A stretch of DNA of 64,000 bases from an uncultured Thiotrichaceae bacterium (GTDB taxonomy: Bacteria > Pseudomonadota > Gammaproteobacteria > SZUA-229), in the NCBI GenBank assembly GCA_964441285.1, contig CAYTUK010000007.1, positions 17,736 to 81,735 of the forward strand, in the 5' to 3' direction. Below, in pieces: positions 4,414-64,000 of this stretch. Both the position numbers and the translations under genes were made by a program. The first letter of the stretch is position 1. Each line of letters starts with the position of its first letter. The notes under the pieces were generated by a model. That model saw only the letters and a list, made by a program, of their open reading frames with translations, searched no databases and had not been told where the DNA came from.

Positions 4414-4526
4414 GGATACTTATGGTTCAAGACCGTCAGCCGCAAGGATGCGGATGTCGAGCCGACATGGATGTATTCACCGTGTGTTTTTAACCATGGG
4501 TATCCTTTTCATTCATCACTGTTAGT
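4414..4526 (+). repeat. Family A palindromic MITE-like repeat, copy 1 (left arm eroded)
   Basis: TTCAAGACCGTCAGCCGCAAGGATGCGGATGTCGAGCCGACATGGATGTATTCACCG core, shared with other copies in the window. Confidence 0.9.
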
Positions 4527-4543
4527 GATTAACCAGAATAAGT

Positions 4544-4625
4544 TTAAGGAACCGCTGATTAATTCTGTATGCAATATTGTAAGTTGAATGCTTACAGCTT
4601 TATAAATTGATCAGAGATTCCTTAG
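4544..4625. mobile_element. Short non-autonomous element with IS5-like terminal inverted repeats
   Basis: TTAA-GGAACCGCTGATTAATT ... AATTGATCAGAGATTCC-TTAG: 17-bp imperfect TIRs with YTAR-type flanks; related ends at 48839-48995. Confidence 0.55.
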
Positions 4626-4633
4626 AAGAAACC

Positions 4634-4666
4634 TTGACCTGTGACCCAGGGTATAGGTTGTAGTAT
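4634..4666 (+). promoter_or_regulatory. MerR-family (CueR-like) metal-responsive promoter/operator for the YHS-copA unit
   Basis: TTGACC -35 overlapping the dyad ACCTGTGACCC-A-GGGTATAGGT, then TAGTAT after an over-long spacer. Resembles the E. coli PcopA ACCT..AGGT dyad. Confidence 0.65.
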
Positions 4667-4768
4667 TGGGTAGAGCTTGTATACATAGCTTATATATAGA
4701 CGCTTGTATCAGGAAACGAATGGATTCCTGTTTAGGATAAATAGATAACTTTAAATGAGGTGAGTATT

Positions 4769-5167
4769 ATGTTTGGTAAAAATTTGTTTGGTAAAAATAA
4801 AAACGTAACAGATAATACGACAAACAAACTGGAGCTGAAAGATATTGTGTGTGGCATGACCGTCACAGATAAAAGTGAGCACCATATTAATTTACAGAGC
4901 CATGATTATTATTTCTGTAGTAGCAGTTGTCACGATAAATTTAAAACTGATCCAGAACAGTATGTATCGCCACCTGATAGCAGTAAAAATGTGCAACTTA
5001 AAGATCCCGTCTGTGGTATGAATATTACTGCGGATAGTAATTTTCATCTTCACCATGATAATCAGGAATATTATTTTTGCAGCCAGGGGTGTGAAGATAA
5101 ATTTCAATCGGCACCAGATGAATATGTGAATTTAGACGATGCGGCAGGGCATTCTGTAAAAAAGTAA
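4769..5167 (+). CDS. Tandem YHS-domain metal-binding protein; probable N-terminus of a frameshift-fused CopA
   Basis: Two D(I/P)VCGM...YYFCS..C..KF...P..Y repeats; GAGGTG SD 6 nt before ATG 4769. Confidence 0.85.
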
Positions 5168-5222
5168 AAACGGAAATAGTGGATGATTGCTTGCATAAAG
5201 CAGGTGCCATTAATTCCGTTTT
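5158..5222 (+). promoter_or_regulatory. Candidate -1 programmed ribosomal frameshift signal
   Basis: In-frame A_AAA_AAG at 5158-5164, TAA at 5165-5167, and stem 5167-5182/5207-5222 (15 of 16 positions pair). The -1 frame is the copA frame. Confidence 0.7.
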
Positions 5223-7440
5223 CTATACCTGTCCGATGCACTCTGAGGTTACTCAGGAAAAGCCAGGTTCATGCCCAAAGTGTGGTATGGCATTAGAAAC
5301 GGCGGGTGCCCCGATAGCCATAACAAGCACAGAATATACCTGTCCAATGCACCCTGAAGTGATACAGGATCATCCCGGTAATTGTCCAAAATGCGGTATG
5401 GCACTGGAAGCAAAAACCATTGTTGCTGAAGATAAAAATGAAGAGCTTGACGATATGAGTCGGCGTTTCTGGTTTAGTACAGTGCTGGCAATACCCGTAT
5501 TTCTGCTTGCCATGATTGCTGATTTAATGCCGGCATTATTGCCTGATGCTTTATCCATGCAATATGTGCAATGGATTGAGTTCGTGCTGGCGACACCGGT
5601 TGTTTTCTGGGGTGGCTGGCCTTTTTATGTGCGCGCAGTACAATCGGTCAGAACATGGAACCTGAATATGTTTACTCTGATTGGTCTGGGAGTCTCTGTT
5701 ACCTGGATTTATAGTACTGTAGCGTTGTTGTTTCCAGAAATCTTTCCAAAAGTCATGCAAATGGAAGGCGGCATAGTCGATGTTTATTTTGAAGCTGCAG
5801 CAGTTATTACGGCTCTGGTTCTGTTGGGACAGGTGCTTGAGCTACGTGCTCGTAGTCAGACAAATTCAGCAATAAAAATGTTACTTGGTCTGGCACCAAA
5901 TACCGCACGTATTGTTCGTGATGATGGCAGTGAAGAAGATATTCCATTAGAGCAGGTGAAAGTTGGTGATGTGTTACGTGTCAGACCCGGTGAAAAAGTT
6001 CCGGTTGATGGTCGCGTTACCAGCGGCAGTAGTTCGATTGATGAATCAATGGTAAGTGGAGAACCGATTCCTGTTGGTAAAGAGGAAGGTGATCATGTTA
6101 TTGGTGCTACCGTTAATGGTACGGGTAGCCTATTAATGCGTACGGAAAAAGTTGGTGCAGATACGCTGTTGTCACAGATAGTCCACATGGTAAGTGAAGC
6201 ACAACGCTCACGCGCACCAATTCAAAAGCTGGCAGATGTGGTTGCCGCCTATTTTGTACCAGCCGTGGTGACTGTCGCTGTTATTGCTTTTTTTGTCTGG
6301 TGGCTTGCTGGCCCTGAGCCTCAGCTAGCTCATGCTGTGGTGAATGCGGTTGCCGTTTTAATTATTGCCTGTCCATGTGCATTAGGTCTGGCGACACCGA
6401 TGTCGATTATGGTTGGAACGGGTAAAGGTGCAACGATGGGGGTGTTGATTAAAAATGCTGAAGCGCTAGAAATTCTAGAAAAAGTTGATGTTCTGGTTGT
6501 CGATAAAACAGGGACCTTAACAGAAGGTAAACCAAAATTGGTCGCGGTTAAAACGGTGAATGATTTTGATGAGAACACAGTACTATCACTGGTTGCTAGT
6601 CTGGAGCGTTCGAGCGAGCACCCGTTGGCTGCGGCAATTGTACAGGGAGCAAAAGAACGTAATGTTAGTTTCTCACAAACCGACGAGTTTGAGTCGGTAA
6701 CCGGTAAAGGTGTTAGCGGCGTGGTGAATGCGAAGCGTGTGGCTTTGGGCAATCTTAAACTTATGCAAAGTTTAAATATAGATATGGGTGATTTATCTTC
6801 GCAGGCAGAAGCAGGGCGTGCTAAAGGTCAAACGGTTATGTTTATCTCGATTGATGGTCAGGCTGCGGGTCTCATTGGGGTGGCCGATCCGATTAAAGCT
6901 TCAACCAGCGAAGCAATTAACCATCTGCATAAAGCCGGGGTGCAGGTTGTAATGCTTACGGGAGACAGTAAAACAACTGCTGAAGCGGTTGCAAAAGAAT
7001 TGAACATTGACCGGGTGGAAGCCGAAGTATTGCCTGATCAAAAAGCCAGTATTGTTAAACAGCTTCAGACGGAAGGGAAAATTGTTGCTATGGCCGGTGA
7101 TGGGATTAACGATGCTCCAGCACTGGCACAATCTCATGTTGGTATTGCAATGGGAACAGGTGCTGATGTGGCAATGGAAAGTGCCGGAGTTACTCTGGTA
7201 AAAGGGGACTTGCGCGGCATTGTGAGAGCACGGCGACTCAGTCATGCGGTAATGAATAATATTCGGCAAAATTTATTTTTTGCGTTTATTTATAACCTGC
7301 TTGGTGTACCCGTTGCAGCGGGTGTGCTTTACCCATTTTTCGGTATATTACTGTCGCCCGTTATTGCCGCTGCAGCGATGAGTTTTAGTTCAGTCTCTGT
7401 GATTACAAATTCATTAAGGTTAAAGCATACGGAATTATAA
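5179..7440 (+). CDS. copA: Copper-translocating P1B-type ATPase (frame open from 5122; probably entered by frameshift)
   Basis: Two YTCPMH...CPKCGM metal-binding domains, [30 protein letters not shown] and MSFSS. Confidence 0.95.
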
Positions 7441-7601
7441 AGTGTTTTTAGACGGCATTATAATCCTTCTAAGGTAAAGATGAAGAGACTTATCTGTCGC
7501 TAGAAATCGTTATACATACGGTGAAATTAATCAGCAACAACAGGCAGCTTTGAAGCAGGAGCTAAACAATAACCTGATATTTATTTAATGAGGTATGAGC
7601 A

Positions 7602-7931
7602 ATGAAGTTTCGTAAAATTACAGCAATTATACGACCTGAGCGACTTGAGGCAGTGGAAGAATGCCTGAAAAAAATGAATGTTCCTGGCATTAGTGTTACC
7701 AAAGTAAAAGGTTTTGGTGAACATGCTAATTTTTTTGAGTCAGACTGGATGTGCCAGAATGTCAGAGTGGAAGTTTTTACTGAAATCAGGCAGGCAGATG
7801 AGGTTGCCAGGAAGATTATGGACGCTGCACACACGGGTATTGAAGGTGATGGCATCGTCGCCATTTTACCAGTAGAAACGATTTACCATATTCGCACCAA
7901 AGAGAAATGCGAACACGAAGTTTGTAAGTAG
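7602..7931 (+). CDS. PII-family (GlnB-like) protein of the heavy-metal-efflux-associated type
   Basis: KITAIIRPERLEAV, VKGFG, AAHTG..GDG.V; T-loop short and without the uridylylated Tyr. Confidence 0.85.
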   Translation: MKFRKITAIIRPERLEAVEECLKKMNVPGISVTKVKGFGEHANFFESDWMCQNVRVEVFTEIRQADEVARKIMDAAHTGIEGDGIVAILPVETIYHIRTKEKCEHEVCK

Positions 7932-7947
7932 CCTGGTTGCTACTTAT

Positions 7948-8079
7948 TACTGAAACGAATGAAAAGGCTACTCATGTGTTAAAGACATGCGGTGAATCCA
8001 TCCCTGTCAGCTCGACACCCGCATCTCTGCGGCTGATGGTCTCGAACAATGGGTAGCCTTTTCATCTGTACTGTTAGTA
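7948..8079 (-). repeat. Family A repeat, copy 2
   Basis: TACTGAAACGAATGAAAAGGCTAC ... GTAGCCTTTTCATCTGTACTGTTAGTA; core on the minus strand. Confidence 0.92.
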
Positions 8080-8096
8080 ATTTGTTAAAGGGGGAA

Positions 8097-9560
<1,464 letters not shown>

Positions 9561-9636
9561 TCACGACTTATTCAGAGCCTTCCTAGTATATCATTGCAAT
9601 TCTGCTATGAGATATTCAAATGAGGCAAACAAGCGA

Positions 9637-23757: not shown

Positions 23758-25110
23758 TTATCGCATGGTGACCAGCTCTTCCGCACTGGTGGGATGAATG
23801 GCAATGGTATCATCCAGATCTTTTTTGGTCGCTCCCATGCGTATTGCCACTGCAAATCCCTGTAACATTTCATCAGCGCCAGGGCCGATAATGTGGCAGC
23901 CAATAACTTTTTCCTGTGCTCCGATCACCACCAGTTTTATCGATGTCTTGATTTCATGCTCGGTTAATGCGTTATACATGGCGGTAAAACGTGTCTGGTA
24001 AATTTTTACCGCTTCACCATGAATTTCACGGGCCTGGGTTTCAGTGAGTCCAATGGTTGCAATGGGCGGGTGGCTAAAGACAACAGTGGGGATGTTATTG
24101 TAATCTAAGTGTCTATCTGTTTGATGGTTATATAAGCGATCTGCAAGGCGACGGCCAGCGGCAATTGCGACTGGTGTCAAGGGTGCACGGCCACAAACAT
24201 CCCCCAATGCGAAGATATTATCAATATTGGTGTTCTGGAAATCATCAACCTGAATATACCCCTTTTCATCCAGCTTGACACCGGCGTTATCCAGTCCGAG
24301 CGCCTGTGTCTGCGGTTGGCGGCCAATGGCCCAGATTAAGTGGTCGATATTTTTATTCTCACCACCCTTGTCACAGGTTAATGTAAGCTTCCCATTGGAC
24401 TGTTTTTGTATATCAGTAATTTGTGAGCGAGGTAAGATATTAATGCCATCATCAATCATGGTTTCCATCAAATTCTCTCGTAACATGGCATCAAATTCGC
24501 GGAGCACATGACCTTTACGCAGATACATCACGACTTCAGTTCCCAGGCTGTTTAATACACCGGCGATTTCAACTGCGATATACCCCGAGCCAACAATGGC
24601 GACACGCTCAGGTTGTTGTGTTAGCGCAAAAAAACCATCCGAGCTAATGCCGTGTTTTGCACCACTGGTAGGGGGAATAACAGGTACTGTACCGGTGGCA
24701 ATGGCAATATGTCTGGCATGGAGAGTCCGTCCATTCACGTCAATGGTATGAGCATCAATAAACACAGCAGAGCCCTGTATTTCATCTATATTCGAGTCTT
24801 TTAAATACTGATGATACCAGCTGTTGATTTTGTTGATGTAGGCCTCGCGTTTATCGACCAGTTGTTGCCAGTCAAAACCTTCTTTCTTCAGGCTAAAGCC
24901 ATAGCTTTTAGCATCCATTATGGACTGCTGTAAGCTTGCTGCGTACCACATGATTTTTTTAGGCACACAGCCAACATTGACACAGGTACCCCCCATTTTT
25001 CCTGATTCAATTAAGGCAACTTTTTTACCATATAAGGCGGCACGTTCGGCAATGGACAAACCCCCACTACCGCCGCCGATAGCAATTAGATCGTAATCAA
25101 ATTTTTTCAT
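23758..25110 (-). CDS. gor: Glutathione reductase
   Basis: [35 protein letters not shown]. Confidence 0.96.
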
Positions 25111-25239
25111 GTCTATTTAGTGAGTGTGTTTATGGACAAAGGCGATAGTATGTCGGTTTTTATTAAAAACAGACAGCGTGTTGTTTATTCACGGCCTTGC
25201 TGCAATGCCTTTTATTTTAAGTCATTGTCTGATATTTAT

Positions 25240-25370
25240 TACTGAAACGAATGAAAAGGCTGCCCATGGTTAAAGACACGCGGTGAATACATCCATGTCG
25301 GCTCGACATCCGCATCCCTGCGGTTGACGGTCTTGAACAATGGGTAACCTTTTCATCTGTACTGTTAGTA
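25240..25370 (-). repeat. Family A repeat, copy 3 (131 bp, near consensus)
   Basis: TACTGAAAC...GTTAGTA ends; core on the minus strand with both GGA motifs intact. Confidence 0.93.
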
Positions 25371-25530
25371 GTATACATAAATTATCCATTTGCGGGGCTA
25401 CAGTAATCGACCGCACTAAGGTAAAATTAGCCGATTAATAATTATTCCAACTGAGTTTTCTGACTTGAACTGCCATTAAAATCAGTTGGCTGTCTTCTTT
25501 TTTATGCTCTCTTACATTCTGGAACGCAAT

Positions 25531-30980: not shown

Positions 30981-31013
30981 CGAAAGAAATTATTGTATTT
31001 TTTATTCGTCTGT

Positions 31014-31144
31014 TACTTAACAGAATGGATGAAAAGATACCTGGTGTTCAAGACCGTCAGCCGCAGGGATGCGGGTGTCGAGCTTGCATGGAGGTGTTTA
31101 CAGCGTGTCTTGAACAATTAGATATCCCTTTATCTGTTTCAGTA
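31014..31144 (+). repeat. Family A repeat, copy 4
   Basis: TACTTAACAG...GTTCAAGACCGTCAGCCGCAGGGATGCGGG...GTTTCAGTA. Confidence 0.9.
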
Positions 31145-31294
31145 ATATGTCAGCCTGCGGCTGTGAGCCTATACTACGCGCAATTTTGGTTAATGTTAAT
31201 ACTTCAGTGGAAGCGTAAAATAGACCATCTCGGCGGAGAGTTGACTGAATTGGTTGGCTCGATAGATTGGCTAACAAAAAAAGTAAAAACCACG

Positions 31295-42926: not shown

Positions 42927-43851
42927 CGGTGATGTAGAAAAAAATATTGAGTTCGGTGAAACACTGAAGCAGGCAAGGGAAGCACAAAAGCTTAGCATTG
43001 ATGACATTGCTGAACTATTGAAAGTGCCGTCGAAGATAATTTTATTAATCGAAGCTTCTGATGTCAGGCAACTCCCTGCGCCAACCTTTGCGCGTGGTTA
43101 TCTTTGCGCGTATGCAAAACGGGTGGGAATTCAGGATGTTAATATTCTTGCAGCCTATGACCGCGTTATGCCACGCAAGATACAGTTAAGACCACGTTCG
43201 AATCTGCCCAGAAAAACGACCAGTCAATCACCTTTAGTTAAGGCCGTTACTTTTATATTAATTATTCTTGGCGTGTTAGCCATTGCTTACAGCGGTTATC
43301 AATATTATGGTAAAAAAGTTAGTAGTATGGAAGCGAGTCTTCAGTATCAGGCTGAACAGAATGCGGGTAAAGTAAACGCGCTGACTGGGTTAAAACAGCA
43401 GGTTTCAGCTGAGAAGAAAACTGCTGATAGAATATCCGGTTTTAATGTAACTCCAGCACTGACCGATAAAGCAGATAACTCTGCCAGGGGGGAATTAGCC
43501 AGTGCCAGGGTATTAATAAAAAACAAACAGGTACAGATAAACACGAGAAACACATCTAACGTACCGCAGGGTGTTGATAATATTCAATTGCTGGCAAAAA
43601 ATGGTGCATGGGTTGAAATTAGTGATGCGACGGATAAACGCCTGCATTATAATATGATCCCCAAAGACAAATGGGTGAGTTATAACGGTACTGCGCCATT
43701 CAAAGTCTCTCTGGGCAATGCACGCTCAACCCGTATCAAGGTTAACAATTTGACAATTGATATGTCGAAACATATTCGCAGTAATAATACGGCTAAGTTT
43801 AAAATATCAACAATCAAACGTAATGGGCACCAAATTGCTGTTTTCCACTAA
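42910..43851 (+). CDS. rodZ: Cytoskeleton protein RodZ
   Basis: N-terminal HTH (G..LK.ARE, FARGYL..YAK), one TM helix, C-terminal DUF4115-like region (WVEI.DA, PF...LGN). Confidence 0.88.
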   Translation: MSSSDSGDVEKNIEFGETLKQAREAQKLSIDDIAELLKVPSKIILLIEASDVRQLPAPTFARGYLCAYAKRVGIQDVNILAAYDRVMPRKIQLRPRSNLPRKTTSQSPLVKAVTFILIILGVLAIAYSGYQYYGKKVSSMEASLQYQAEQNAGKVNALTGLKQQVSAEKKTADRISGFNVTPALTDKADNSARGELASARVLIKNKQVQINTRNTSNVPQGVDNIQLLAKNGAWVEISDATDKRLHYNMIPKDKWVSYNGTAPFKVSLGNARSTRIKVNNLTIDMSKHIRSNNTAKFKISTIKRNGHQIAVFH

Positions 43852-43860
43852 ACCTGAATT

Positions 43861-43991
43861 TACTAACCGTACAAATGAAAAGGCGACCCATGGTTCAAGA
43901 CCGTCAGCCGCAGGGATGCGGGTGTCAAGCCGACATGGATATATTCACCGCGTGCCTTTAATAATGGGTCGCCTTTTTCTTTGTTTCAGTA
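43861..43991 (+). repeat. Family A repeat, copy 5 (131 bp)
   Basis: TACTAACCG...AAAAGGCGACCCAT...core...ATGGGTCGCCTTTT...GTTTCAGTA. Confidence 0.93.
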
Positions 43992-44007
43992 ATAAATATT
44001 CATTCTG

Positions 44008-45327
44008 ATGTCTAAAATATTACAGTCCATTCGTGGAATGCATGATATATTACCGGCGGAATCACCTCGGTGGCAGGCACTCGAAGCCACGGTTCATCGC
44101 ATCATGCAGCAGTATGGTTATAGTGAAATTCGTATGCCACTGGTTGAATCGAGCGAGCTGTTTTGCCGTTCGATTGGTGAAGTAACGGATATTGTGGAAA
44201 AGGAAATGTATACCTTTGATGACAGAAACGGTGACAAACTGTCTTTACGGCCAGAAGGTACGGCCAGTTGCGTGCGCGCAGGTATTCAGCATGGTTTGTT
44301 ACATAATCAGATTCAACGGTTGTGGTATAGCGGCTCGATGTTTCGGCATGAGCGTCCGCAAAAAGGGCGTTATCGGCAGTTTCATCAGTTGGGCGTTGAA
44401 GTGTTTGGTATTGGGTCGCCGGATATTGATGCAGAATTAATTCTTATCAGTGCGCGTTTATGGAAACAACTTGGGCTTGATGATGTGCATCTGGAGCTGA
44501 ACTCACTAGGTTCGGTCGAGTCGAGAACACGATACAGGCAGATATTGATTGATTACTTAAAGTCGCATCAGTCAGGTTTGGATGCGGACAGTTTGCGTCG
44601 TCTGGAGACAAATCCACTGCGGATACTGGATAGTAAAAATCCTGAGTTAAAAATTATACTGGACAATGCGCCGCAGCTACTGGATTATCTTGACGAGGAA
44701 TCAAGTGAGCAGTTTAACAAACTAAAACAATACCTTGATATGGCTGGTATTACATATACGATCAACCCGCGGTTGGTACGTGGCCTGGATTATTACTGCA
44801 AAACAGTATTTGAATGGGTAACCGATAAACTGGGAGCACAGGGAACGGTTTGTGCTGGTGGCCGTTACGATGCGCTGGTGCAACAGCTGGGTGGTAAACC
44901 AACACCCGCGATTGGTTTTGCAATGGGCATTGAAAGAGTGCTGGCCTTGCTGGAACAGTCTGCAGCGGACGATTTATACCGTACGACAGATTTGTACATT
45001 ATAGTCCAGGGTGTTCATAGTGAAAAACAGGGGCTGATATTGGCAGAATCTTTACGTGAACAGATACTGCCATTAAAAGTAACCATGCATTGTGGTGGAG
45101 GCTCAATTAAAAGCCAGATGAAAAAAGCGGACAAAAGCGGTGCATTACTGGCTTTAATACTGGGAGAAAATGAAATTGCTCACCAAACGGTTACAGTGAA
45201 GTTTTTACGTGAAAGCAAAGAACAGATAAATATGAAGCAATCAGAAATTATTAATTATATTAATGAAACGATAGCGCACGAAGCGTCTGCCAGCATAAAA
45301 CCGGCTACGCGATTAAAGCAGGATTAA
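44008..45327 (+). CDS. hisS: Histidine--tRNA ligase
   Basis: [43 protein letters not shown]. Confidence 0.98.
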
Positions 45328-48825: not shown

Positions 48826-48838
48826 CAGATTATCCTCA

Positions 48839-50533: not shown

Positions 50534-51481
50534 TTGATGATTATGCTTAATGCAAAACAGAAAAACTTTTTTGAGTTATTGATTGCCGAGAAGGGCAGTA
50601 ATACGCAACTTAACCGGTTGATGCTGTTGCTGTTATTATTAATTATAATAATGCTAATTATCCCCAGCTTTGCTTATGCGAATGGCCTGTTTGATTTTCA
50701 AATGAAAATGGCTAAAAGGGGCAGTGCTGAGGCACAGTTTAAAGTCGGTGAAATGTATGAAACGGGTTTTGGTATAAAACAGAATAAACAGAAAGGCATT
50801 AAATGGATTAAAGAAGCGGCTAAAAATGGTCATGAAACAGCGGGTTTTAAACTGCTGTACTGGGATTTGGAAAAAAATGGTATTACCCGTGCAAACAAAA
50901 CAAAATTTGCGGCTTTAAAAGCGAAAGCGATGGCAGCGAATCCTCAGGCGATGTATTACATGGGGAAGATGTATGCGCACGGTGCGGGGGTAAAAACCAA
51001 CTATGTGAAATCTTTGCGGTGGCTGAATAAAGCGGCACTGGTCGGTATACAGTCCGCTGAGCAGGAAATGGACACGGTTCGTGAGAAACAGCAACTCCGG
51101 TTAACCGTTAAACGCCGGGCCTATGAGAAAAAACGTGCCCAGTTAAAGGCCAGTCAGGATGCTGAGAGACAGAAGCAGAAGGCTAAAAGACAGAAGCAGC
51201 TTCAATTGAAAAAACAACAGCAGACGAGAGCCAGGGCTAAGGCGCAGATTGAAGCATTATATAAAAACCAGCAGATTAAAAAGGCCGCTGCCGCGTCATT
51301 GCAAAAGCAAAAAGCAAGCACCGCAGCAGCAACGGCAAAACAAAAGGCAGAGCAGCGCCAGCTGGAAGAAAAAAAACAGGCATTGCTTAGAAAACGTGCC
51401 ATCAAACAGCAACATAAAGAAAAATTTGAATCTGACCCCTGTAGTAGCCGGTCAGCCCGCTTTTTATCAACCTGCCGCTGA
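50534..51481 (+). CDS. Exported Sel1-like repeat protein with a coiled-coil tail; start uncertain
   Basis: AEAQFKVGEMYETG.G, AMYYMGKMYAHG.GV; Lys/Gln/Ala-rich tail. Confidence 0.85.
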   Translation: MMIMLNAKQKNFFELLIAEKGSNTQLNRLMLLLLLLIIIMLIIPSFAYANGLFDFQMKMAKRGSAEAQFKVGEMYETGFGIKQNKQKGIKWIKEAAKNGHETAGFKLLYWDLEKNGITRANKTKFAALKAKAMAANPQAMYYMGKMYAHGAGVKTNYVKSLRWLNKAALVGIQSAEQEMDTVREKQQLRLTVKRRAYEKKRAQLKASQDAERQKQKAKRQKQLQLKKQQQTRARAKAQIEALYKNQQIKKAAAASLQKQKASTAAATAKQKAEQRQLEEKKQALLRKRAIKQQHKEKFESDPCSSRSARFLSTCR

Positions 51482-51484
51482 TTT

Positions 51485-51629
51485 TACTAACAGGATGGAT
51501 GAAAGGCTATGGATGGATGAAAGGCTATCTGTTGTTCACCGTCAGCCGCAGGGATGCGGGTGCCGGGCTTACATAGCAGTGTTTACCGCGTGTCTTGAAC
51601 ACCAGGTAGCTTTTTTATCTGTTTCAGTA
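51485..51629 (+). repeat. Family A repeat, copy 6, with an internal 18-bp duplication
   Basis: TACTAACA-(GGATGGATGAAAGGCTAT)x2...CCGTCAGCCGCAGGGATGCGGG...GTTTCAGTA. Confidence 0.9.
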
Positions 51630-51847
51630 ATGCGATAAAGTGTCTTGCTCTCGCACTGATCTGGACTTGTGGGAGGTTTTTCTGTCTGTTGCTTATCCAG
51701 TCCAGCTAATAACCCGAGCCTCTCTGGTTATTAGCACATAAGTTTTATTTTACAGCTTTGTCCCGACATGGTTCGGGGTATAATCAACTTCCTGTTTTTT
51801 CCTACCGTTATTAACTCGGCAGATTTCTCTGAAAAATCCATGTTTTT

Positions 51848-54734: not shown

Positions 54735-55830
54735 ATGGAAATTAATCCAGTTACCAATAAAATAAATGACCTTGGTGAGCGTACGCAGTCGCTAAGGGGG
54801 TATCTTTGACTTTGACAGGCGTAAAGAAGAGCTTGAAGAAGTCAATCGTGAGTTAGAACAACCAGGGGTTTGGAATAACGCCGAGAACGCGCAGAAACTT
54901 GGCCAGGAACGTGTTCGCCTGGAAAAAATTGTACTCGTTATTGAAAGCTTAAACGCAGCACTGGATGATGCTGGAGTGCTACTGGAGATGGCGGTAGAAG
55001 ATAATGATGAGAGCAGTGTTGCCGCTGTTATTGAGGATTTAACCGCACTGGAATCAAAGGTTATTGAGCTAGAGTTTCGGCGTATGTTCTCCGGCGAAAT
55101 GGATGCCAACAACGCATTTCTGGATATACAGTCTGGTTCTGGTGGCACTGAAGCACAGGACTGGGCCGAAATGCTATTGCGTATGTACTTACGCTGGGGT
55201 GAGGCGCATGGTTTTACAACGGAACTGATGGAAGCATCGCCCGGTGATGTTGCGGGTATAAAAAGTGCTACGATTCGAATTGCCGGTGAATATGTCTATG
55301 GTCGGTTGCGTACCGAAACAGGCGTGCATCGTCTGGTAAGAAAATCTCCGTTTGATTCCGGTAATCGTCGCCATACTTCTTTTGCAGCGGTATTTGTATC
55401 GCCCGAAATTGATGATGACATCGAAATTGATATTAATCCGGCAGACCTGCGGATTGATGTTTATCGTGCCAGTGGTGCGGGTGGTCAGCATGTGAACCGA
55501 ACCGAATCAGCGGTACGTATTACGCACAACCCGACCGGGACTGTCGTACAATGTCAGAATGATCGGTCACAACATAAAAATAAAGCCAGCGCGATGAAGC
55601 AGTTAAAGGCTAAACTGTATGAACTGGAAATACAGAAACGCAATGCCAATCAGCAGGCGATTGAAGAAACCAAATCGGATATAGGCTGGGGTAGCCAGAT
55701 ACGTTCGTATGTACTCGATCAGTCACGGATTAAAGATTTACGCACCAATGTTGAAACAGGGAATACCCAGGCAGTGCTGGATGGTGATCTTGATCAGTTT
55801 ATTGAGGCAAGTTTAAAACTTGGGTTCTAG
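54735..55830 (+). CDS. prfB: Peptide chain release factor 2, with programmed +1 frameshift
   Basis: ATG 54735; AGGGGG-TAT-CTT-TGA-C at 54795-54810; +1 frame carries SPF and GGQ. Confidence 0.97.
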
Positions 55831-58639: not shown

Positions 58640-59050
58640 ATGTGTAGAAAAGAAGTTGGTGCATTTGTCTATCAGCTTGATGAAGATGGCTTAAAACTGG
58701 TGCTGATAAATAATCGAAAGCAAACGCGCTGGATTTTACCCAAGGGACAAATTGAAGAGAATTTAAGCGATAAGAAAGTGGCGCTTAAAGAAGTTTATGA
58801 AGAGGCCGGTATTATCGGTATGCTGGAAAAGGATCTTCCGGTAAAAGTGGTGCGTTATATGAGCCGCACCGGTTCAGTAGAATTACATGTTTACACTGTG
58901 CAGATAGCCTATATGCTGGACCAGTGGCCGGAAAAACACTTCAGGCAGCGTGTTATGGTTGATGTGGATGTGGCACTATTAATGGTCAGGAAAAAGGCGT
59001 TACGTGTGTTGATTACGCAGCTAGCCACTGAAATTGAACAGGGTTATTAA
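58640..59050 (+). CDS. NUDIX hydrolase (DIPP/Ddp1-like)
   Basis: RWILPKGQIE......VALKEVYEEAG Nudix box, WPE...RQR. Confidence 0.85.
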   Translation: MCRKEVGAFVYQLDEDGLKLVLINNRKQTRWILPKGQIEENLSDKKVALKEVYEEAGIIGMLEKDLPVKVVRYMSRTGSVELHVYTVQIAYMLDQWPEKHFRQRVMVDVDVALLMVRKKALRVLITQLATEIEQGY

Positions 59051-59076
59051 TACTGGCGAGGCGCACACGCTCTTGT

Positions 59077-59161
59077 GCAGGAGGTATTTACAGTGGGTCA
59101 TAGAAATAAATCCCAGTTCACGTCACAATGTATTATCATAAACAATCTATCCTTATACAAC
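59077..59161 (+). repeat. Family B repeat, copy B (right half)
   Basis: AGGAGGTATTTACAGTGGGTCA...; its ATGTATTATCATAAACAATC...CTTATACAAC tail is the reverse complement of 55891-55920. Confidence 0.75.
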
Positions 59162-59263
59162 CTTTACCTAGGAGCCTGTCCGAGAAAATTAACGGGACAG
59201 TCGTGGTTGGTTATTTATACTGTCGGTAAGTGGCTAATCGATTATTAGCGAAAGCAGAGAAAC

Positions 59264-60130
59264 ATGGGAGCCATGATGGATTACGATGAATTTTTTGAGA
59301 AAGTAAAAGATAATGATGATGGCTTTTTAAAAAAAGTTTATAAACGCTACAGTAAATATACACAGGAGCAGACGTTAAGACCTTACCAGGCAGAGTTAAT
59401 AAAACTTCAGAATCATCTCGAAAAGCACCAGAAAAAAATGATTATTCTGATTGAAGGCCGCGATGCGTCAGGGAAGGGTGGTGGTATTCGCCGTATTACC
59501 CGTTTTATGAATGAAAAGCACTATCGTGTGGTTGCACTGGGGAAGCCTTCCAATGTTCAGCTAAGCCAGTGGTATTTTCAGCGTTATATCGAACAGTTCC
59601 CGCGTGGAGGAGAAATTGTTCTGTTTGACCGTAGCTGGTATAACCGTGCAATGGTTGAGCCGATATTTGGTTTTTGCAGTCAAGATGAATATGCTACTTT
59701 TATGAAAACCGTACCGCGTTTTGAAGAAGACCTGGTTGCCCATGGAATTATCTTTTTAAAAATTTATTTTTCAGTATCAAAGCGTGAACAGGCTGCTCGG
59801 TTTAAAGAGCGTGAGGAAAATCCATTAAAACGCTGGAAGCTGAGTGAAATTGATGTGCAGATGCAGGAGCGTTGGGATGAGTTTACACAGATGAAGTATC
59901 AAATGTTAAAACAAACCCACACCTATACTGCTCCCTGGTATGTTATTCGCAGTAATAATAAATTTCTTGCTCGTCTTAATGCCATTAAAAGTATTTTAAA
60001 TAATATTGAGTATGAAGATAGAAACCTTAATCTGGATTATATGGTTGATGACTCTGTTTTTTATTCCGGTGCACACGAAGTTGAATTGATGGAAAATCAC
60101 CTGCATGAAAAAGGCAAGTTTATGGTTTAA
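59264..60130 (+). CDS. ppk2: Polyphosphate kinase 2
   Basis: EGRDASGKGG, QWYFQRY, FDRSWYNR, PLKRWKLS. Confidence 0.95.
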   Translation: MGAMMDYDEFFEKVKDNDDGFLKKVYKRYSKYTQEQTLRPYQAELIKLQNHLEKHQKKMIILIEGRDASGKGGGIRRITRFMNEKHYRVVALGKPSNVQLSQWYFQRYIEQFPRGGEIVLFDRSWYNRAMVEPIFGFCSQDEYATFMKTVPRFEEDLVAHGIIFLKIYFSVSKREQAARFKEREENPLKRWKLSEIDVQMQERWDEFTQMKYQMLKQTHTYTAPWYVIRSNNKFLARLNAIKSILNNIEYEDRNLNLDYMVDDSVFYSGAHEVELMENHLHEKGKFMV

Positions 60131-60194
60131 GCCTGGTGATTTTATGGGTACGAACATGAGTGAGAGCAACCCAGCCCGTATCACGCTGATCATT

Positions 60195-60317
60195 GACTAA
60201 CAGGATGGATGAAACGGATACTTAAGGTGTCAAGACACGCTGTCAATTCATCAATGTTGGCCCGACACCCACATCCCTGCGGCTGATGGTCTTGAACCAT
60301 AAATATCCGTTTCAGTA
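60195..60317 (-). repeat. Family A repeat, copy 8 (core inverted relative to arms)
   Basis: ACTAACAGGATGGATGAAA left arm, but core reads CAAGACACGC...CCCTGCGGCTGATGGTCTTGAAC. Confidence 0.85.
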
Positions 60318-60331
60318 ATAGGTGCTGGTTC

Positions 60332-61345
60332 TTAACCGCCTGTCATGCTCATTAACCGAACGACCTGCTCAGGTTTTTCATTGAATTCATGTTTTTCAGG
60401 TTTTTGTTTGATGGCATGAATGATAACGGTTTTTAATTCGGCGTTACTGATACCCTGGCGTAATAGTGGACGTAGTTCAACTTTATCGTTCTGCCCCAGG
60501 CATAAGTGAAGTGTGCCATTAACGGATAAACGTACCCGATTACAGCTTGCACAAAAGTGTTGTGAGATCGGAGTGATAAATCCAATACGTAGATTTGTGT
60601 TTTTAATTTGAACGTATCTTGCCGGGCCGCCACCTGGCATAACACCTGGAATGAATGTATAACGGTTTGCCAGTTGTTGTTTAACAGACTGTAAATCGAT
60701 ATAGTGTTTACTTGCCTCATCGCTGGTGCTTCCCATTGGCATGGTTTCAATAAGACGTAGCGTGAAGTCATGTTGCAAACAAAATTCCACCATGTTTTCA
60801 AACTCATCTTCATTGCGCCCTTTCATGGCAACCATGTTGATTTTTATCGGTGAAAAACCGGCCTGTTTTGCTGCCATTAAGCCATCCAGGACGGGTTGTA
60901 GTTTCCCGCCGGTAATGGCTTTAAATCTCTCTGGGTTTAATGTGTCAAGACTGACATTGATTCTTGATACACCCGCATCATAGAGCTTGTTAGACTGTTT
61001 ATCGAGTAAGATGGCATTGGTGCTCAGTGATAAATCATCAAGACCGGGCAGTGCAGTTAGCTGTTGTGCCAGCGTGCTAATATTTTTTCTAACCAGGGGT
61101 TCACCACCCGTTAAACGTACGCGGGAAACTCCCAGTTCGGTAAAGGCTTTGACAATTTGCGTAATCTCACTAAAAGTTAACCAGTGTTCAGGTTGTTCAA
61201 AATCCTTAAAGCCATTGGGCATACAATAGAAACAACGCAGATTACATTTATCCGTTACCGATAGACGCAGATACTCAATGCGACGGCCAAATGGGTCGAT
61301 GAGTGACGTTTGTTTGTGCTGCATGTGCGTGTTCATAATGTGCAA
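60332..61345 (-). CDS. moaA: GTP 3',8-cyclase; start uncertain
   Basis: YLRLSVTDKCNLRCFYC, RLTGGEP, FCASCNRVR, C-terminal GG. Confidence 0.97.
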   Translation of the reverse strand: MHIMNTHMQHKQTSLIDPFGRRIEYLRLSVTDKCNLRCFYCMPNGFKDFEQPEHWLTFSEITQIVKAFTELGVSRVRLTGGEPLVRKNISTLAQQLTALPGLDDLSLSTNAILLDKQSNKLYDAGVSRINVSLDTLNPERFKAITGGKLQPVLDGLMAAKQAGFSPIKINMVAMKGRNEDEFENMVEFCLQHDFTLRLIETMPMGSTSDEASKHYIDLQSVKQQLANRYTFIPGVMPGGGPARYVQIKNTNLRIGFITPISQHFCASCNRVRLSVNGTLHLCLGQNDKVELRPLLRQGISNAELKTVIIHAIKQKPEKHEFNEKPEQVVRLMSMTGG

Positions 61346-61490
61346 TGTTTAGAGTGTACTAGCTTATTGGTGTTGGCAACATGCTGGCATGATCTACGTC
61401 AAATGGGAATATCCAGTAGTTGACAGGTGGTTATATGCCCAGAGTTGCTTTGTTATGGTGAAACCAGCTGTTATCAGGTACCTTAAAAGT

Positions 61491-61609
61491 TACTCACAGG
61501 ATAGATGAAAAGGCTAGCCATTGTTCAAGACCGTCAGCCGCGGGGATGCGGGTGTCGAGTCTATAGGGATGTATTCACCAGGTGTCTTTAACTATCCGTC
61601 CTGTTAGTA
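61491..61609 (+). repeat. Family A repeat, copy 9
   Basis: TACTCACAGGATAGATGAAAAGGCT...core...CCTGTTAGTA (same arm type at both ends). Confidence 0.88.
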
Positions 61610-61700
61610 TATTGCATATCAGAAAAAAATTTAAAAAAGGTGATGCAAATTTCCAATGTATAAAAACCCGTTATGGTTTTGGTTGTCAGTGGTTGTGTAA

Positions 61701-63305
61701 ATGAAAATACGCACGAAATTATTTATCTTCAGTTTAATTTTTGTTGCTATTGTGCCCTGGTTAGGGGTTCGCTTTGTGGATAAAATTGAACAGTCTTTAT
61801 TGCAGGGGCAGGAAGAAACACAGTCGATGACAGCATCAGCAATAGCTATGGTGTTAAAAGGCTATACACGTCTGTTTAATATTGATAAAAATGCGTTATA
61901 TGTTTATCCAGTTAAACATAATATTATTATAGATGGTTATGATGAAGACTGGGATCAGTTAAAGCAACGTTTTGTCTCCTATGCAGGTGGAAAATTTTCA
62001 TTATTGCTGGCGAGCAATGCGAATTATTTATATGGTTTCCTGAAAGTAAAAGACAGGAATATTGTTTATCGTAATCCACGCAATGTCTCGCTCGATGCAA
62101 GCGACCACGTTCGGCTGGAATATATTGATAAAAATAACCAACTTAAGCGTCTGGTTTTAGTGACGGAAGGTCAGGGTAGTATTAGTGTGTATGCGGTAGA
62201 TGATAGCTGGAAAACAGGCCAACCTGTATACACGGTAAAAGGTGTCTGGCGTGAAACGAAACAGGGTTATAATCTTGAATATCAATTACCTAAAGAATGG
62301 TTGCTGCCTGCCAGACAGTTTGTATTAAGTGTTGTCAATGTTTCCTCCGCAAGTACGCCCGCTTCAGAGACGATTGTTTCTACACATTCACCAAATAATA
62401 ATGGATTAAATACATTATTATTTCAATCGCAGGCAATGCGTAATGTGATTAAAAATTTAAGTGAGTCGGATTCACACATTTGCATTATTGATAAATACCG
62501 TCGGGTTCGTGCAGTGACTGGTGGTTCGACATTCAGTGCATTGTTTTGTCAGCATATAGATAAGCTTAGTAACAACTTGATAACGGGAGCTTTGGCTGCA
62601 CAGGTTCCGCTTAAGGAGGAGAATAAAAAGTTAGTATCGCGTATTAACCTGGGGCTTGAGACATTAATTGTTGCGGCACAACCTGTCTTTGATGGCGATA
62701 AAGTTATCGGTGCCGTGCTGGTAAGCAAAAACAGTCAGCGAGTGCTTTCGCTACAACGCGATACATTAAATGATGTTATCGTTGCAACGCTGGTTATTTT
62801 TGTTCTTGTTATAGTTAGTCTGCTTATTTTCAGTTTCTGGCTGACATTTCGAATCAACCGATTAAAAAAGCAGACGACTTTGCTGATTGATGATAAAGGG
62901 CATTTTATCAGCCAGATTGATTTATCTGACGGTAAGAAAAATGATGAAATTGGTGATCTGTCACGCAGCTTTAATGTGTTACTGGGTAAACTTAATCGTT
63001 ACTCCCATTTTCTTGAAACAGTCCCCAGGATGTTACCCCATGAAATATTAAATCCGGTGAACACGATCAGTATGGCATTGCAGACAATGCCGCAGCAAAC
63101 TAATCTAGCGGATATGGCCACACTGGAGAGTGCCATTAAACAGTTGCAACGTATTGTCTCGAGTTTAACTGAGGCGGCAAGCATTGATGATGGTTTAACC
63201 AGGGATGAAGTCAAACTATTTAATATTGCGGTGTTGCTCCATGAGTACGTGCAGAATTTACAGAACCGGCAGGGTAAGAGTCCGTTACGCTGTAACCGCC
63301 CATGA
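61701..63305 (+). CDS. PdsS-like (proteobacterial dedicated sortase system) sensor histidine kinase, C-terminally truncated
   Basis: N-terminus KIR.KL...PWLG...E..L.QGQE, IDG..DW, second TM, HAMP (DEIGDLSRSF), HisKA-like HEILNP; no HATPase N/G boxes before the stop. Confidence 0.7.
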   Translation: MKIRTKLFIFSLIFVAIVPWLGVRFVDKIEQSLLQGQEETQSMTASAIAMVLKGYTRLFNIDKNALYVYPVKHNIIIDGYDEDWDQLKQRFVSYAGGKFSLLLASNANYLYGFLKVKDRNIVYRNPRNVSLDASDHVRLEYIDKNNQLKRLVLVTEGQGSISVYAVDDSWKTGQPVYTVKGVWRETKQGYNLEYQLPKEWLLPARQFVLSVVNVSSASTPASETIVSTHSPNNNGLNTLLFQSQAMRNVIKNLSESDSHICIIDKYRRVRAVTGGSTFSALFCQHIDKLSNNLITGALAAQVPLKEENKKLVSRINLGLETLIVAAQPVFDGDKVIGAVLVSKNSQRVLSLQRDTLNDVIVATLVIFVLVIVSLLIFSFWLTFRINRLKKQTTLLIDDKGHFISQIDLSDGKKNDEIGDLSRSFNVLLGKLNRYSHFLETVPRMLPHEILNPVNTISMALQTMPQQTNLADMATLESAIKQLQRIVSSLTEAASIDDGLTRDEVKLFNIAVLLHEYVQNLQNRQGKSPLRCNRP

Positions 63306-63895
63306 TGCACAATGACAACAAGAGTGAAGCAATGACGAATAAAACCATAAACAGTAAAACGATAAAGGATAAAGCGATAAAAAATAAAACATGGGTGCCA
63401 GTAAAAATTGTAATTTTAACAATCTCTGACAGTCGCACTGAGGCAGACGATACGTCAGGGGATGCATTAGTTGAGCGCTTGACACAGGCCGATCATGTAC
63501 TGGTCGAAAGAATGATTATAGTGGACGACAAATATAAAATTCGTGAAGCCATCTCACGCTGGATTGCCGATAAAAATGTTGATGTGGTGATCAGTACCGG
63601 GGGCACAGGTTTAACCGGCCGGGATATTACGCCAGAAGCCGTTAAGCCGTTATTTGATAAAGAGATAGAGGGTGTCGGAGAACTGTTTCGTCTAGTTTCC
63701 TATGAGGAGATTGGTACTTCAACCATTGCTTCACGATGCATTGGCGGAGTGGCTAATGGTACCTTTATTTTCTGCCTGCCGGGTTCCACGGGTGCCTGTC
63801 GAACTGGCTGGGATAAAGTGATTGCACCACAGCTCGATTGCAATACACGGCCCTGTAATATCGTGGCACTCATGCCCAGGTTGCTGGAAAAATAA
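63302..63895 (+). CDS. moaB: Molybdenum cofactor biosynthesis protein B; start uncertain
   Basis: LTISDSR...DDTSG, TGGTGLTGRD.TPEA, IGTSTI.SR, LPGSTGAC.TGW, RPCN. Confidence 0.95.
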   Translation: MMHNDNKSEAMTNKTINSKTIKDKAIKNKTWVPVKIVILTISDSRTEADDTSGDALVERLTQADHVLVERMIIVDDKYKIREAISRWIADKNVDVVISTGGTGLTGRDITPEAVKPLFDKEIEGVGELFRLVSYEEIGTSTIASRCIGGVANGTFIFCLPGSTGACRTGWDKVIAPQLDCNTRPCNIVALMPRLLEK

Positions 63896-63900
63896 AACAG

Positions 63901-64000
63901 GATGACATGAACTGGAGTTTATTGCTGAGACACGCTGTAAATATCTCCCTGTACGCCCATCTGCCACCTCCATGCGGCAGACGGTCACAGCAATAAACAC
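63901..64000 (-). repeat. Family B repeat, copy C (runs off the window end)
   Basis: Reverse complement reads TTTATTGCTGTGACCGTCTGCCGCATGGAGGTGGCAG...ACAGGGAGATATTTACAGCG. Confidence 0.85.

Follow-up and report, generated by a model that had tools for sequence, protein, structure and literature searches.

The repeats dispersed through the 64,000-nt stretch of DNA analysed here (the window) belong to a recently mobile element, and its identity as a YPAL-type mobile hairpin element is, taken alone, very probable. Our preferred reading is that it is a non-autonomous hairpin element of the YPAL/RU-2 superfamily whose core, once transcribed in the sense direction, would bind CsrA; for this whole statement, predicted binding included, we estimate a probability of about 0.48. 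Across 31 genomes the stems of the core covary while its loops stay invariant, and within the present genome there is no sign of selection on individual copies.

Repeat copies in the window

The first-pass annotation of this DNA had described 11 core-containing copies. An nhmmer profile built from 8 of the window copies recovered all 11 and found no further copy within the 64,000 nt. The word GACCGTC is present 12 times in the window, versus 2.6 expected, a count that none of 100 shuffles reached; 7 occurrences lie inside repeat copies and 5 elsewhere. An origin of these repeats by chance is excluded. The details of that description also held: two arm families share one core, the longer family (about 170 nt) comprising copies 55882, 59075 and 63902, and a CCGC/GCGG stem carries the first GGA in its loop. 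The second, sixth and eighth copies each have one degenerate motif, by an AGA in the first loop of the second, in the second loop of the sixth, and by a truncation of the eighth that removes the first hairpin. The features are as follows.

4396..4530, + strand: family-1 copy (nhmmer match C7:22131-22265), 9 nt past the stop of ORF 3682-4380; outer arms flipped relative to the core (B arrangement)
7941..8084, - strand: family-1 copy, flanked by the copA-like gene 5179-7440 / ORF 7602-7931 and by the stop of purB (8097-9551, -); GGA lost from the first loop (AGA instead)
25232..25375, - strand: family-1 copy in the divergent gap between the glutathione reductase gene (23758-25110, -) and icd (25486-26787, +)
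31009..31152, + strand: family-1 copy in the divergent gap between an M23 peptidase gene (30099-30980, -) and an aminotransferase gene
43849..43999, + strand: family-1 reference copy, in the sense direction of both its neighbours, rodZ (42910-43851) and hisS (44008-45327)
43899..43956, + strand: 58-nt conserved core of the reference copy, basal helix strands at both ends and two hairpins inside
43905..43924, + strand: hairpin 1 of the reference copy, loop A-G-G-G-A-T, GGA at 43914-43916
43932..43943, + strand: region of hairpin 2 in the reference copy, containing the GGA at 43937-43939; copies of this subfamily have a weak stem here, with a small competing hairpin predicted
51473..51635, + strand: family-1 copy that follows the stop of ORF 50534-51481 by at most 4 nt; left arm with a short internal duplication, GGA lost from the second loop
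55882..56050, + strand: family-2 copy of about 170 nt with the other arms and the same core, sense to both prfB and lysS, between which it lies
59075..59163, + strand: truncated family-2 copy, reduced to hairpin 2, right arm and outer extension
60190..60334, - strand: family-1 copy with flipped arms in the convergent gap between PPK2 (59264-60130, +) and moaA (60332-61345, -)
61479..61625, + strand: family-1 copy lying upstream of a gene for a histidine kinase (61701-63305); its right arm is degraded
63902..64000, - strand: family-2 copy directly past the stop of moaB (63895); the window ends within it, and in the genome it extends to C7:81752

Copy number and mobility in the genome

Searched genome-wide (2.4 Mb), the nhmmer profile gave 209 matches at E<=1e-3 (best 2.5e-45). 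Removal of overlaps left 189 copies, of which 128 are near full length and 150 contain the core; together the 189 occupy 22,096 bases, or 0.92% of the genome. The copies are nearly all intergenic, with only 1 match lying mostly within a gene call, and many sit in transcribed gaps near stop codons (a stop-side distance of <=25 nt in 34 of 87 cases).

The proposal that the repeats are MITE-like and mobile is borne out by their distribution. Using blastn, the element was detected in 5 of 30 other relatives, a patchy pattern, and one congener carries the core only, with different arms. The rodZ-hisS gap, filled here, is empty in two congeners, and insertions differ between congeners. No flanking duplication of fixed length was seen in 96 full copies, and the empty congener sites are too diverged for the ends to be placed. 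Self-blastp of the 2069 gene calls gave no partner insertion sequence with the same ends, in a 24-contig assembly from which collapsed repeats may be missing; the sole duplicated transposase was of the IS5 family, with ends unlike those of the element.

Relation to named elements

The element resembles YPAL/RU-2 as a 130-170-bp intergenic repeat that forms one long hairpin, was recently mobile and reaches about 100 copies per genome; YPAL has 101 copies in Y. pestis (PMC2267715). Comparison at the sequence level places the core as a homologue of the YPAL/RU-2 centre and of Ysr224. The Y. pestis RU-2 sequence (PMC2759123, Table 1b), which was compared by eye and not by computed identity, has the same core in its centre, sharing the linker, the second hairpin and the 3' strand, with a first hairpin of the same loop type and a compensated stem. 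Its arms are unrelated in sequence to those of the present element, and its host is an enterobacterium, whereas the host here is an uncultured vent gammaproteobacterium. Target-site duplications of YPAL are reported as variable, of 3-26 bp, beside dyad symmetries (PMC2229807). No mention of CsrA was found in the YPAL literature consulted.

The Rfam family RF02770 (Ysr224) represents the other strand of RU-2, its consensus being the reverse complement of the 3' two-thirds of RU-2; the modelled strand thus reads UCC rather than GGA, and a single arm is covered. On the strand opposite to the core, the Ysr224 model matched all 10 related loci weakly, reaching 41 bits on locus L063 (E 2.9e-7), and gave 87 weak matches of 12-33 bits in the element's own genome, the best at 33.1 bits; the gathering cut-off of 70 bits was reached in neither set.

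TwoAYGGAY (RF01731) has the same layout as the element, and common descent of the two is plausible. Its model aligned end to end, on the GGA strand, with one of the 10 related loci (L027) at 33.9 bits against a cut-off of 43, and found 0 of 20 further foreign loci at E<=0.1, no gathering match in the window and none at E<=10 in the own genome. The element differs from TwoAYGGAY in a free second loop position (any base, most often G or U), a much shorter hairpin 2 and the absence of flanking arrays of 5-6-mers or REPs.

ERIC, Correia/NEMIS and other MITEs are likewise small, with terminal inverted repeats, intergenic and co-transcribed placement and a long RNA hairpin, but compared with the usual MITE the present arrangement is reversed, the inside being conserved and the arms variable. 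No blastn match (words of 11, E<=0.01) was obtained in 5,426 genomes of E. coli, a species whose genomes carry ERIC. Like REPs and REPINs, the element is a hairpin repeat, and RAYT-like genes are present and co-occur with it statistically; REPs are of 20-40 bp with a GTAG or CGTC tag (PMC3733652).

Fold of the element

Each copy forms a long, MITE-like hairpin in which arms of about 40 nt surround a 58-nt asymmetric core. The arms vary between lineages and between the two families of this genome, where the element measures 135 and 170 nt. The core is a three-way junction. Its basal helix is short, bears a bulge and includes a conserved U.G pair; the loops of its two hairpins both read A-N-G-G-A-N and are closed by C-G. 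Paired cells amounted to 86.5%, compared with 67.2% in shuffles (0 of 500 reached the observed value) and 33-43% with the partners slid. In the arms, which are terminal inverted repeats, 86.7% of the cells are paired and 17 of 23 pairs covary. In single-sequence folds of the main subfamily of this genome, hairpin 2 was often displaced by another small hairpin.

Either strand gives a highly stable fold (-47 to -56 kcal/mol, z -4.7 to -8.3). Together with the intergenic, co-transcribed placement, this would suit the view that the long hairpin alone matters, its loops having no partner, and acts on mRNA stability, processing or termination through RNase III/E or hairpin effects, as has been proposed for ERIC, NEMIS and YPAL; according to De Gregorio 2006 as given in the Delihas review (PMC2229807), YPAL is transcribed together with upstream genes, whose transcript stability it may influence. 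Such an explanation leaves unaccounted for an asymmetric 58-nt core with invariant loops across 37 families in which the arms are replaced, and a U.G pair conserved on one strand, and we regard it as very improbable.

Conservation of the core across the class

Of 150 other genomes of the class, 37 were matched by a covariance model of the core (R1), and no two of these 37 belong to the same family. In the 33 full matches, which come from 31 genomes, every first and every second loop contains GGA (33 of 33 each), and the U.G pair is retained in 31, the matches having been chosen by a model that itself rewards loops and G.U pairs. In the same matches 7 pairs of hairpin 1 and 3 of hairpin 2 covary, and the second position of the first loop is Y in 10 of 33 and G or A in the remainder. 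A linker ending in AGC and the word TTNAC, both unpaired, are likewise conserved; CsrA contacts give no explanation for these two.

The two hairpins could instead be recognition sites of the enzyme that moves the element, their likeness to CsrA sites being coincidental. The enzyme would be a dimeric transposase binding DNA hairpins, e.g. of the Y1/HUH type (IS200/RAYT), acting on one DNA strand; the core would be conserved as a need of transposition, and the arms would need only to pair. As a transposition signal predicts, conservation is seen between lineages and not among the copies within a genome, it concerns the entire core rather than GGA alone, and the arms vary freely yet stay complementary. 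A RAYT-like Y1 transposase was detected in 33 of 38 element-bearing genomes versus 65 of 113 others (p=6e-4), a stronger association over these 151 genomes than that of csrA, and two RAYT-like genes exist in the present genome. In Pseudomonas fluorescens SBW25, moreover, TwoAYGGAY copies are reported to occupy a constant position next to REP arrays (2026 preprint, 10.64898/2026.09.22.753630).

Against this stands the loop pattern, with free N around A..GGA and C-G closure, which is exactly that of CsrA sites. The inverted repeats on either side of the two RAYT-like genes here are their own and are not copies of the element, and five element-bearing genomes gave no RAYT-like match, including two of high quality, one with 9 copies and one with at least 28. 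The association may merely reflect repeat-rich, free-living genomes that carry both. Orientation relative to the replication strand was unbiased (66:81), which also speaks against such an enzyme; IS200/IS605 elements show a replication-strand bias, in contrast to the element. Recognition by a transposase is, on balance, rather unlikely as the reason for the two hairpins.

Predicted binding of CsrA

The gene csrA, whose presence the first-pass annotation had left to be confirmed, was identified at C7:137571-137726 (PF02599, 94.2 bits); its product is almost the same as CsrA of E. coli. All 27 high-quality element-bearing genomes have csrA, and none of 16 high-quality genomes lacking csrA has the element (Fisher p=0.014). 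Over all 151 genomes, csrA was detected in 34 of 38 element-bearing genomes versus 89 of 113 others (p=0.11). The four element-bearing genomes in which csrA was not detected are all 67-88% complete; the gene that neighbours csrA in the present genome ends at a contig edge in one of them and was not found in the other three.

Both loops fit the CsrA-type site C-A-N-G-G-A-N-G, and this C-A-N-GGA-N-G setting occurs in 33 of 33 cases for each loop across the 31 genomes. The loops match the CsrA/RsmE consensus, and their spacing of roughly 23 nt falls within the range that one CsrA dimer can bridge. Binding of CsrA by the element, predicted from the loops, is plausible but unproven.

For similar elements, the idea of mobile hairpins with CsrA-type loops has been published before. 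A 2015 paper (PMC4333381) proposed that TwoAYGGAY binds CsrA, and the 2026 preprint (10.64898/2026.09.22.753630) reports TwoAYGGAY as multi-copy in Pseudomonadota, with a 'mobile-element-like expansion', and raises a possible role as 'multivalent Csr/Rsm sponges'. With CsrB, RsmY and RsmZ the element shares paired GGA in hairpin loops and a genome with csrA; each of these RNAs comes from one gene that has a promoter and terminator of its own, and offers 5-20 sites, whereas the element is dispersed, promoter-less, with two sites per copy and in either orientation. None of the three Rfam models for CsrB, RsmY and RsmZ scored above threshold in this genome, and a separate GGA-rich, classical-looking candidate sponge RNA was located at C14:28291-28500, containing the same (C)A-N-GGA words as the element.

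Retention of the sites within the genome

In gaps between co-directional genes, 47 copies are sense and 39 antisense, a random orientation (p=0.45). Over 148 copies the exact GGA was retained at 0.70 and 0.72 in the two loops, ranks 27 and 36 among 66 core triplets, and both GGAs are intact in 95 copies. Sense copies keep both GGAs no better than antisense ones (28 of 46 versus 28 of 39), and their core identity of 0.856, versus 0.883 for antisense copies (p=0.04), indicates that they are, if anything, slightly more decayed. The expectation that GGA is kept better than its neighbours thus failed in this genome, where it decays like the rest of the core, the outcome that the first-pass annotation had named beforehand as refuting its idea. 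Between lineages, across the 31 genomes, the loops are invariant. Within this genome there was also no sign that individual copies are kept as CsrA sites.

These data bear directly on the view that the host keeps the copies as regulatory devices, either for CsrA control of neighbouring genes or as a distributed CsrA sponge. The fit of the motif, the presence of csrA, the conservation of the loops at family level, the 95 copies with both GGAs and the many copies in transcribed gaps near stop codons would all agree with it. The random orientation, the ordinary decay of GGA and the retention in sense copies do not, and a dedicated sponge candidate is already encoded in the genome. Because the GGA loops lie about 40 nt or deeper inside the element, they do not overlap the ribosome-binding site of the neighbouring gene and could not cover it, and since insertions differ between congeners the regulated gene set would be unstable. 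We consider maintenance by the host distinctly improbable; a distributed sponge role is possible, with the copies as candidates.

Proposed mechanism and consequences

According to the reading that we prefer, the GGA strand would be the working strand, and upon sense transcription of a copy its two loops would clamp one CsrA dimer. Most copies would be neutral passengers. The core would remain constant because only core-intact elements, or a few master copies, go on multiplying. Roughly 95 copies with two intact loops, about half of them sense to a neighbouring gene, might then constitute a diffuse pool of CsrA sites beside the dedicated sponge RNA candidate of the genome.

A bolder version, which we hold to be rather unlikely, is a class-wide selfish hairpin family whose only invariant part is a two-loop CsrA clamp site. 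The element would need CsrA, either to be tolerated in transcripts or to spread; alternatively, it would have descended repeatedly from a few functional CsrA-sponge 'master' genes, as SINEs have from small RNA genes. In genomes like the present one, with about a hundred intact copies, mobile DNA would form a sizeable, fast-changing share of the CsrA-binding pool, and the names YPAL, Ysr224 and TwoAYGGAY would each denote a branch of a single superfamily.

If CsrA binds the cores, a mobile element of about a quarter of the sampled gammaproteobacterial families would spread high-grade sites for this global regulator of translation across transcriptomes, differently in each species. This would offer a route to rapid rewiring or buffering of the Csr system and would also assign a function to YPAL, Ysr224 and possibly TwoAYGGAY, repeats that have carried unrelated names through twenty years of annotation. 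Should CsrA not bind, the core offers the strongest clue so far to the enzyme behind the movement of YPAL-type elements. In either case, current Rfam models miss the branch of this element entirely. Ysr224 is reported among the sRNAs annotated most often per genome (PMC9029176), a frequency that is what a repeat would give.

Copies of the repeat in the genome

We searched the genome of the uncultured Thiotrichaceae bacterium (2.40 Mb in 24 contigs, 99.9% complete, about 43% G+C) with an nhmmer profile of the repeat made from eight window copies, with a cut-off of E ≤ 1e-3. The profile matched 209 places (best E-value 2.5e-45), and 189 copies were left once overlaps and self-matches on the other strand were taken out. 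Near full length is reached by 128 of these copies, and 150 contain the core; together they amount to 22,096 bases, i.e. 0.92% of the genome. With our own gene calls (2069 genes, coverage 88%), only 1 of the 189 lies mostly within a gene. All 11 copies named in the first-pass annotation were recovered, and the profile search gave no further copy in the 64-kb window, which spans positions 17736-81735 of contig C7. Its description of two arm families around a single common core was borne out, the second family being about 170 nt long with some 10-15 copies plus fragments; the first GGA does lie in the loop of a CCGC/GCGG stem, and one motif is missing in copies 2, 6 and 8. A 92-nt query of core plus arms had no match in a plasmid collection at E ≤ 1e-3.

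A constant core within exchangeable arms

A family-1 copy, of about 135 nt, presents an arm of about 40 nt, then the 58-nt non-palindromic core and the complementary arm. Whole copies fold on either strand, with energies of -47 to -56 kcal/mol and z-scores of -4.7 to -8.3. The outer arm ends are asymmetric and the core is found in both orientations relative to them, so that either the core was inverted inside the arms or the arms were inverted around the core. A crude motif test assigns at least 63 copies to one arrangement and 15 to the other, and leaves 72 unclassified. In the window, the variation in core orientation was noted for two copies:

4396-4530, repeat copy
60190-60334, repeat copy

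Additionally, a hybrid copy (contig C8, 86643-86787) has a left arm of family 1 and a right arm of family 2, with the junction inside the core; this points to recombination between the families at the common core. The two core orientations together with this hybrid copy indicate that the arms are exchangeable and that the core is the constant part.

A separate locus on contig C11 (18080-18330, minus strand; L112) shows four tandem 7-nt units with AGGGA in each, followed by a perfect core-less hairpin of sequence like the repeat arms. The locus resembles a derivative of the element with the core missing.

Structure and loops across genomes

The proposed structure combines the arms with two hairpins and a basal helix of 7 bp that has a single bulge. 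It was evaluated on a core alignment (A1) of 6 window copies and 32 foreign loci, one or few per genome and arm type, gathered by a pattern that fixes hairpin 1. On this alignment, in which kin and transferred elements are not independent, 86.5% of the cells are paired, compared with 67.2% after shuffling (none of 500 shuffles reached the observed value), and sliding the partners lowers the pairing to 33-43%.

A covariance model of the core (R1) was derived from this structure. Its search of 32 loci, with the genome's own locus (L075) left out, yielded 33 full-length matches in 31 genomes. Among these matches the 7-bp stem of hairpin 1 takes on many sequences, its paired bases changing together, and hairpin 2 has three covarying pairs. 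Loop 1 reads A-N-GGA-N in 33/33 and loop 2 reads N-GGA in 33/33, with a C-G closure, and the U.G pair of the basal helix is retained in 31/33, these being the best matches per genome under a model that itself rewards the loops and G.U pairs and in which related and transferred elements are likewise not independent. In the arms, read on the GGA strand, G.T outnumbers A.C by 15:3. The same loops are found on different stems in family 2 of this genome, in the Yersinia repeat YPAL and in the consensus of the Rfam family TwoAYGGAY.

Strand-specific wobbles in the arms of the genome's own copies (G.T 187 vs A.C 106) first seemed significant and were dropped, since three subfamily-fixed pairs (51+27+17) cause the excess and the remainder is 92:83.

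Kinship with YPAL, Ysr224 and TwoAYGGAY

No Rfam family reached its gathering threshold within the 64-kb window. A 23-letter core pattern, scanned against one genome per species, gave at least 62 loci, and about 57 of the 62 loci listed present the whole core within arms of quite different, always complementary sequence. Five others (L012, L019, L025, L054 and L057) were rejected as chance matches of the pattern inside other sequence. The hosts among the core loci listed are mostly gammaproteobacterial metagenome bins, along with Alteromonas, Aestuariibacter, Cellvibrionaceae, Chromatiales and Competibacteraceae.

When ten core loci were scanned permissively against Rfam, two families matched below threshold, Ysr224 (RF02770) and TwoAYGGAY (RF01731). 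Ysr224 aligns on the strand opposite the GGA (best 41 bits, E 2.9e-7). TwoAYGGAY aligns on the GGA strand in one of the ten loci, with 33.9 bits vs a cut-off of 43, and this alignment spans the full model, with both CAUGGAUG hairpins as well as the outer stem. In the genome studied here, TwoAYGGAY had no match even at E ≤ 10, and Ysr224 had 87 weak matches of 12-33 bits vs a cut-off of 70. In 20 further loci from 20 genomes, four weak Ysr224 matches were obtained and none of TwoAYGGAY at E ≤ 0.1.

The 168-nt Yersinia RU-2 repeat, which is YPAL, is printed in Delihas 2007 (PMC2759123, Table 1b). When compared by eye, its centre is the same core: the linker, the second hairpin and the 3' strand are identical, and in the first hairpin the loop is of the same type and the stem is compensated. 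Also by eye, the right two-thirds of RU-2 proved to be the reverse complement of the Ysr224 consensus. According to the summary in PMC2229807, YPAL was reported in 2006 to be a miniature insertion sequence of Yersinia that is mobile and co-transcribed. Considering that the RU-2 centre matches the core, the element is a relative of YPAL, and we put the probability that it is a YPAL-type mobile hairpin element at about 0.9. It belongs to a known kind of mobile structured repeat, with new arms and with scores under the Rfam thresholds. An ERIC identity was ruled out by sequence, with no blastn match in E. coli genomes.

TwoAYGGAY was discovered in 2010 (PMC2864571), and CsrA binding via both of its loops was proposed by Gardner and Eldai in 2015 (PMC4333381). 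A September 2026 preprint (10.64898/2026.09.22.753630) gives a median of 11-23 copies per genome in most Pseudomonas groups with a maximum of 202 in one strain, and reports frequent divergent doublets and flanking repeats; it does not mention YPAL, Ysr224 or Yersinia. The link between YPAL, Ysr224 and TwoAYGGAY-like elements is added by the present analysis.

Spread and mobility

R1 was searched in an even sample of the class, made up of 150 further genomes that each represent a different family. Matches were found in 37 of the 150, and several genomes contain at least 28 copies each; with the genome studied here included, 27 of 123 high-quality genomes have the element. This measured spread of the core, the invariant loops on covarying stems and the exchangeable arms are likewise additions of this work. 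Two unpublished genomes of the sample (G057 and G159), which count only among the 150, lack the element and possess csrA and RAYT-like genes.

By blastn, the element occurs in 5 of 30 closer relatives, and one congener has only the core, within other arms. The rodZ-hisS gap holds a copy in the window and is empty in both congeners, which together with the patchy relatives indicates recent movement and a patchy spread. No target-site duplication of fixed length was found at the element ends, the empty sites of the congeners being too diverged to compare, and no partner insertion sequence was found in the genome. The only duplicated protein-coding pair of note is an IS5-family transposase (contig C6, 88022-89353, L101, with a fragment on contig C23), whose ends do not resemble the arms of the repeat.

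CsrA-site likeness of the loops and presence of csrA

The CsrA-site consensus, the SELEX sequence and the range that one dimer bridges served as reference for the loops. Both loops fit C-A-N-GGA-N-G, loop 2 is a near fit to the SELEX consensus cited in the first-pass annotation, and the two GGAs are about 23 nt apart. At the motif level the loops therefore look like CsrA sites. A csrA gene was confirmed in the genome (94.2 bits), about 56 kb past the window end:

contig C7, 137571-137726 (L001), csrA

Of the 151 genomes in the class sample, 123 have a csrA match. Among the high-quality genomes, csrA accompanies the element in 27 of 27, and the 16 that lack csrA are all free of the element (Fisher one-sided p=0.014). 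With all 151 genomes counted, the association is weak (34/38 vs 89/113, p=0.11). Completeness is 67-88% in the four genomes that carry the element but gave no csrA match; the neighbour of csrA in the present genome ends at a contig edge in one of them and was not found in the other three. As csrA is often at contig edges, both here, where some 200 bp separate it from the contig end, and for many of the matches in other assemblies, its absence from fragmented assemblies is unreliable.

The CsrA idea is sound and arrives independently at an already published hypothesis, with support at the level of the family and none at that of the copies in this genome. It is close to an even chance that the loops would bind CsrA when a copy is transcribed in sense. 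The literature searched gave no report of CsrA linked to a bacterial MITE.

Decay and placement of the copies

Within the genome, the GGAs are not kept above their neighbours, contrary to what had been proposed: over 148 copies their exact retention is 0.70 and 0.72, i.e. ranks 27 and 36 of 66 core triplets. Ninety-five copies have both GGAs, 30 have the first alone, 15 have the second alone, and 8 have neither. Copies in co-directional gene gaps divide into 47 in sense and 39 in antisense orientation (p=0.45), and the others are in divergent gaps (40), convergent gaps (23) or at a contig edge (1). Both GGAs are retained in 28/46 sense vs 28/39 antisense copies (p=0.36), and core identity is slightly lower in the sense copies (0.856 vs 0.883, p=0.04). 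Since the GGA loops are at least 40 nt from the element ends, masking of a neighbour's ribosome-binding site is impossible. There is no sign at the copy level that the copies are used as CsrA sites, and we consider it improbable that they are selected regulators or a selected sponge.

The median distance of the element ends is 80 nt to start codons vs 37 nt to stop codons. Among the 87 ends that face a stop codon, 34 are at most 25 nt away and 4 reach 6-7 nt into the end of the reading frame; one further stop-facing end is at -110 nt, well within the gene call.

Conservation between lineages together with neutral decay of the copies is also the pattern of a transposition signal. The loops might thus serve the enzyme that moves the element and not CsrA, and a dimeric hairpin-binding enzyme would equally account for two look-alike hairpins; we hold this to be rather unlikely, though less so than selection on the copies. 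Two Y1 transposase genes of RAYT-like type occur in the genome:

contig C8, 109165-110076 (L105), minus strand, RAYT-like gene, 303 aa, C-terminal helix-turn-helix
contig C4, 160-876 (L104), plus strand, RAYT-like gene, 238 aa, preceded by a tandem array of 13-nt units at the contig start

Such genes track the element in the class sample (33/38 vs 65/113 genomes, p=6e-4), an association that may only mirror repeat-rich genomes in general. However, the repeats that flank the two genes differ from this element, no replication-strand bias of the copies was found (66:81), and five element-bearing genomes have no RAYT-like gene, including two of high quality with 9 and at least 28 copies. The repeats around each of the two genes are inverted, carry GGGGTCA and are particular to that gene. 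The analysis thus adds two opposing correlates of the element, csrA and the RAYT-like genes.

A candidate sponge RNA and other features

Outside the window, an intergenic region contains 13 A-N-GGA words in about 200 nt and terminates in a strong GC-rich hairpin followed by a T run:

contig C14, 28291-28500 (L111, 192-401), plus strand, candidate sponge RNA gene

It is likely a Csr/Rsm-type sponge RNA gene, and is classical-looking as a candidate. Its fold is of unremarkable stability (z -1.2) and it has no likeness to an Rfam family; CsrB, PrrB_RsmZ and RsmY gave no match over their cut-offs in the genome. The candidate gene is immediately followed by a repeat copy (28513-28643, minus strand).

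Two features in the window are ordinary. The prfB gene (RF2, 54792-55830) is open only from model position 73 on (reading frame 54976-55830), in keeping with the programmed +1 frameshift that is usual early in this gene. A copA-like P-type ATPase gene contains a 75-nt direct repeat (5224-5298 and 5335-5409, 76% identity), presumably two N-terminal metal-binding motifs.
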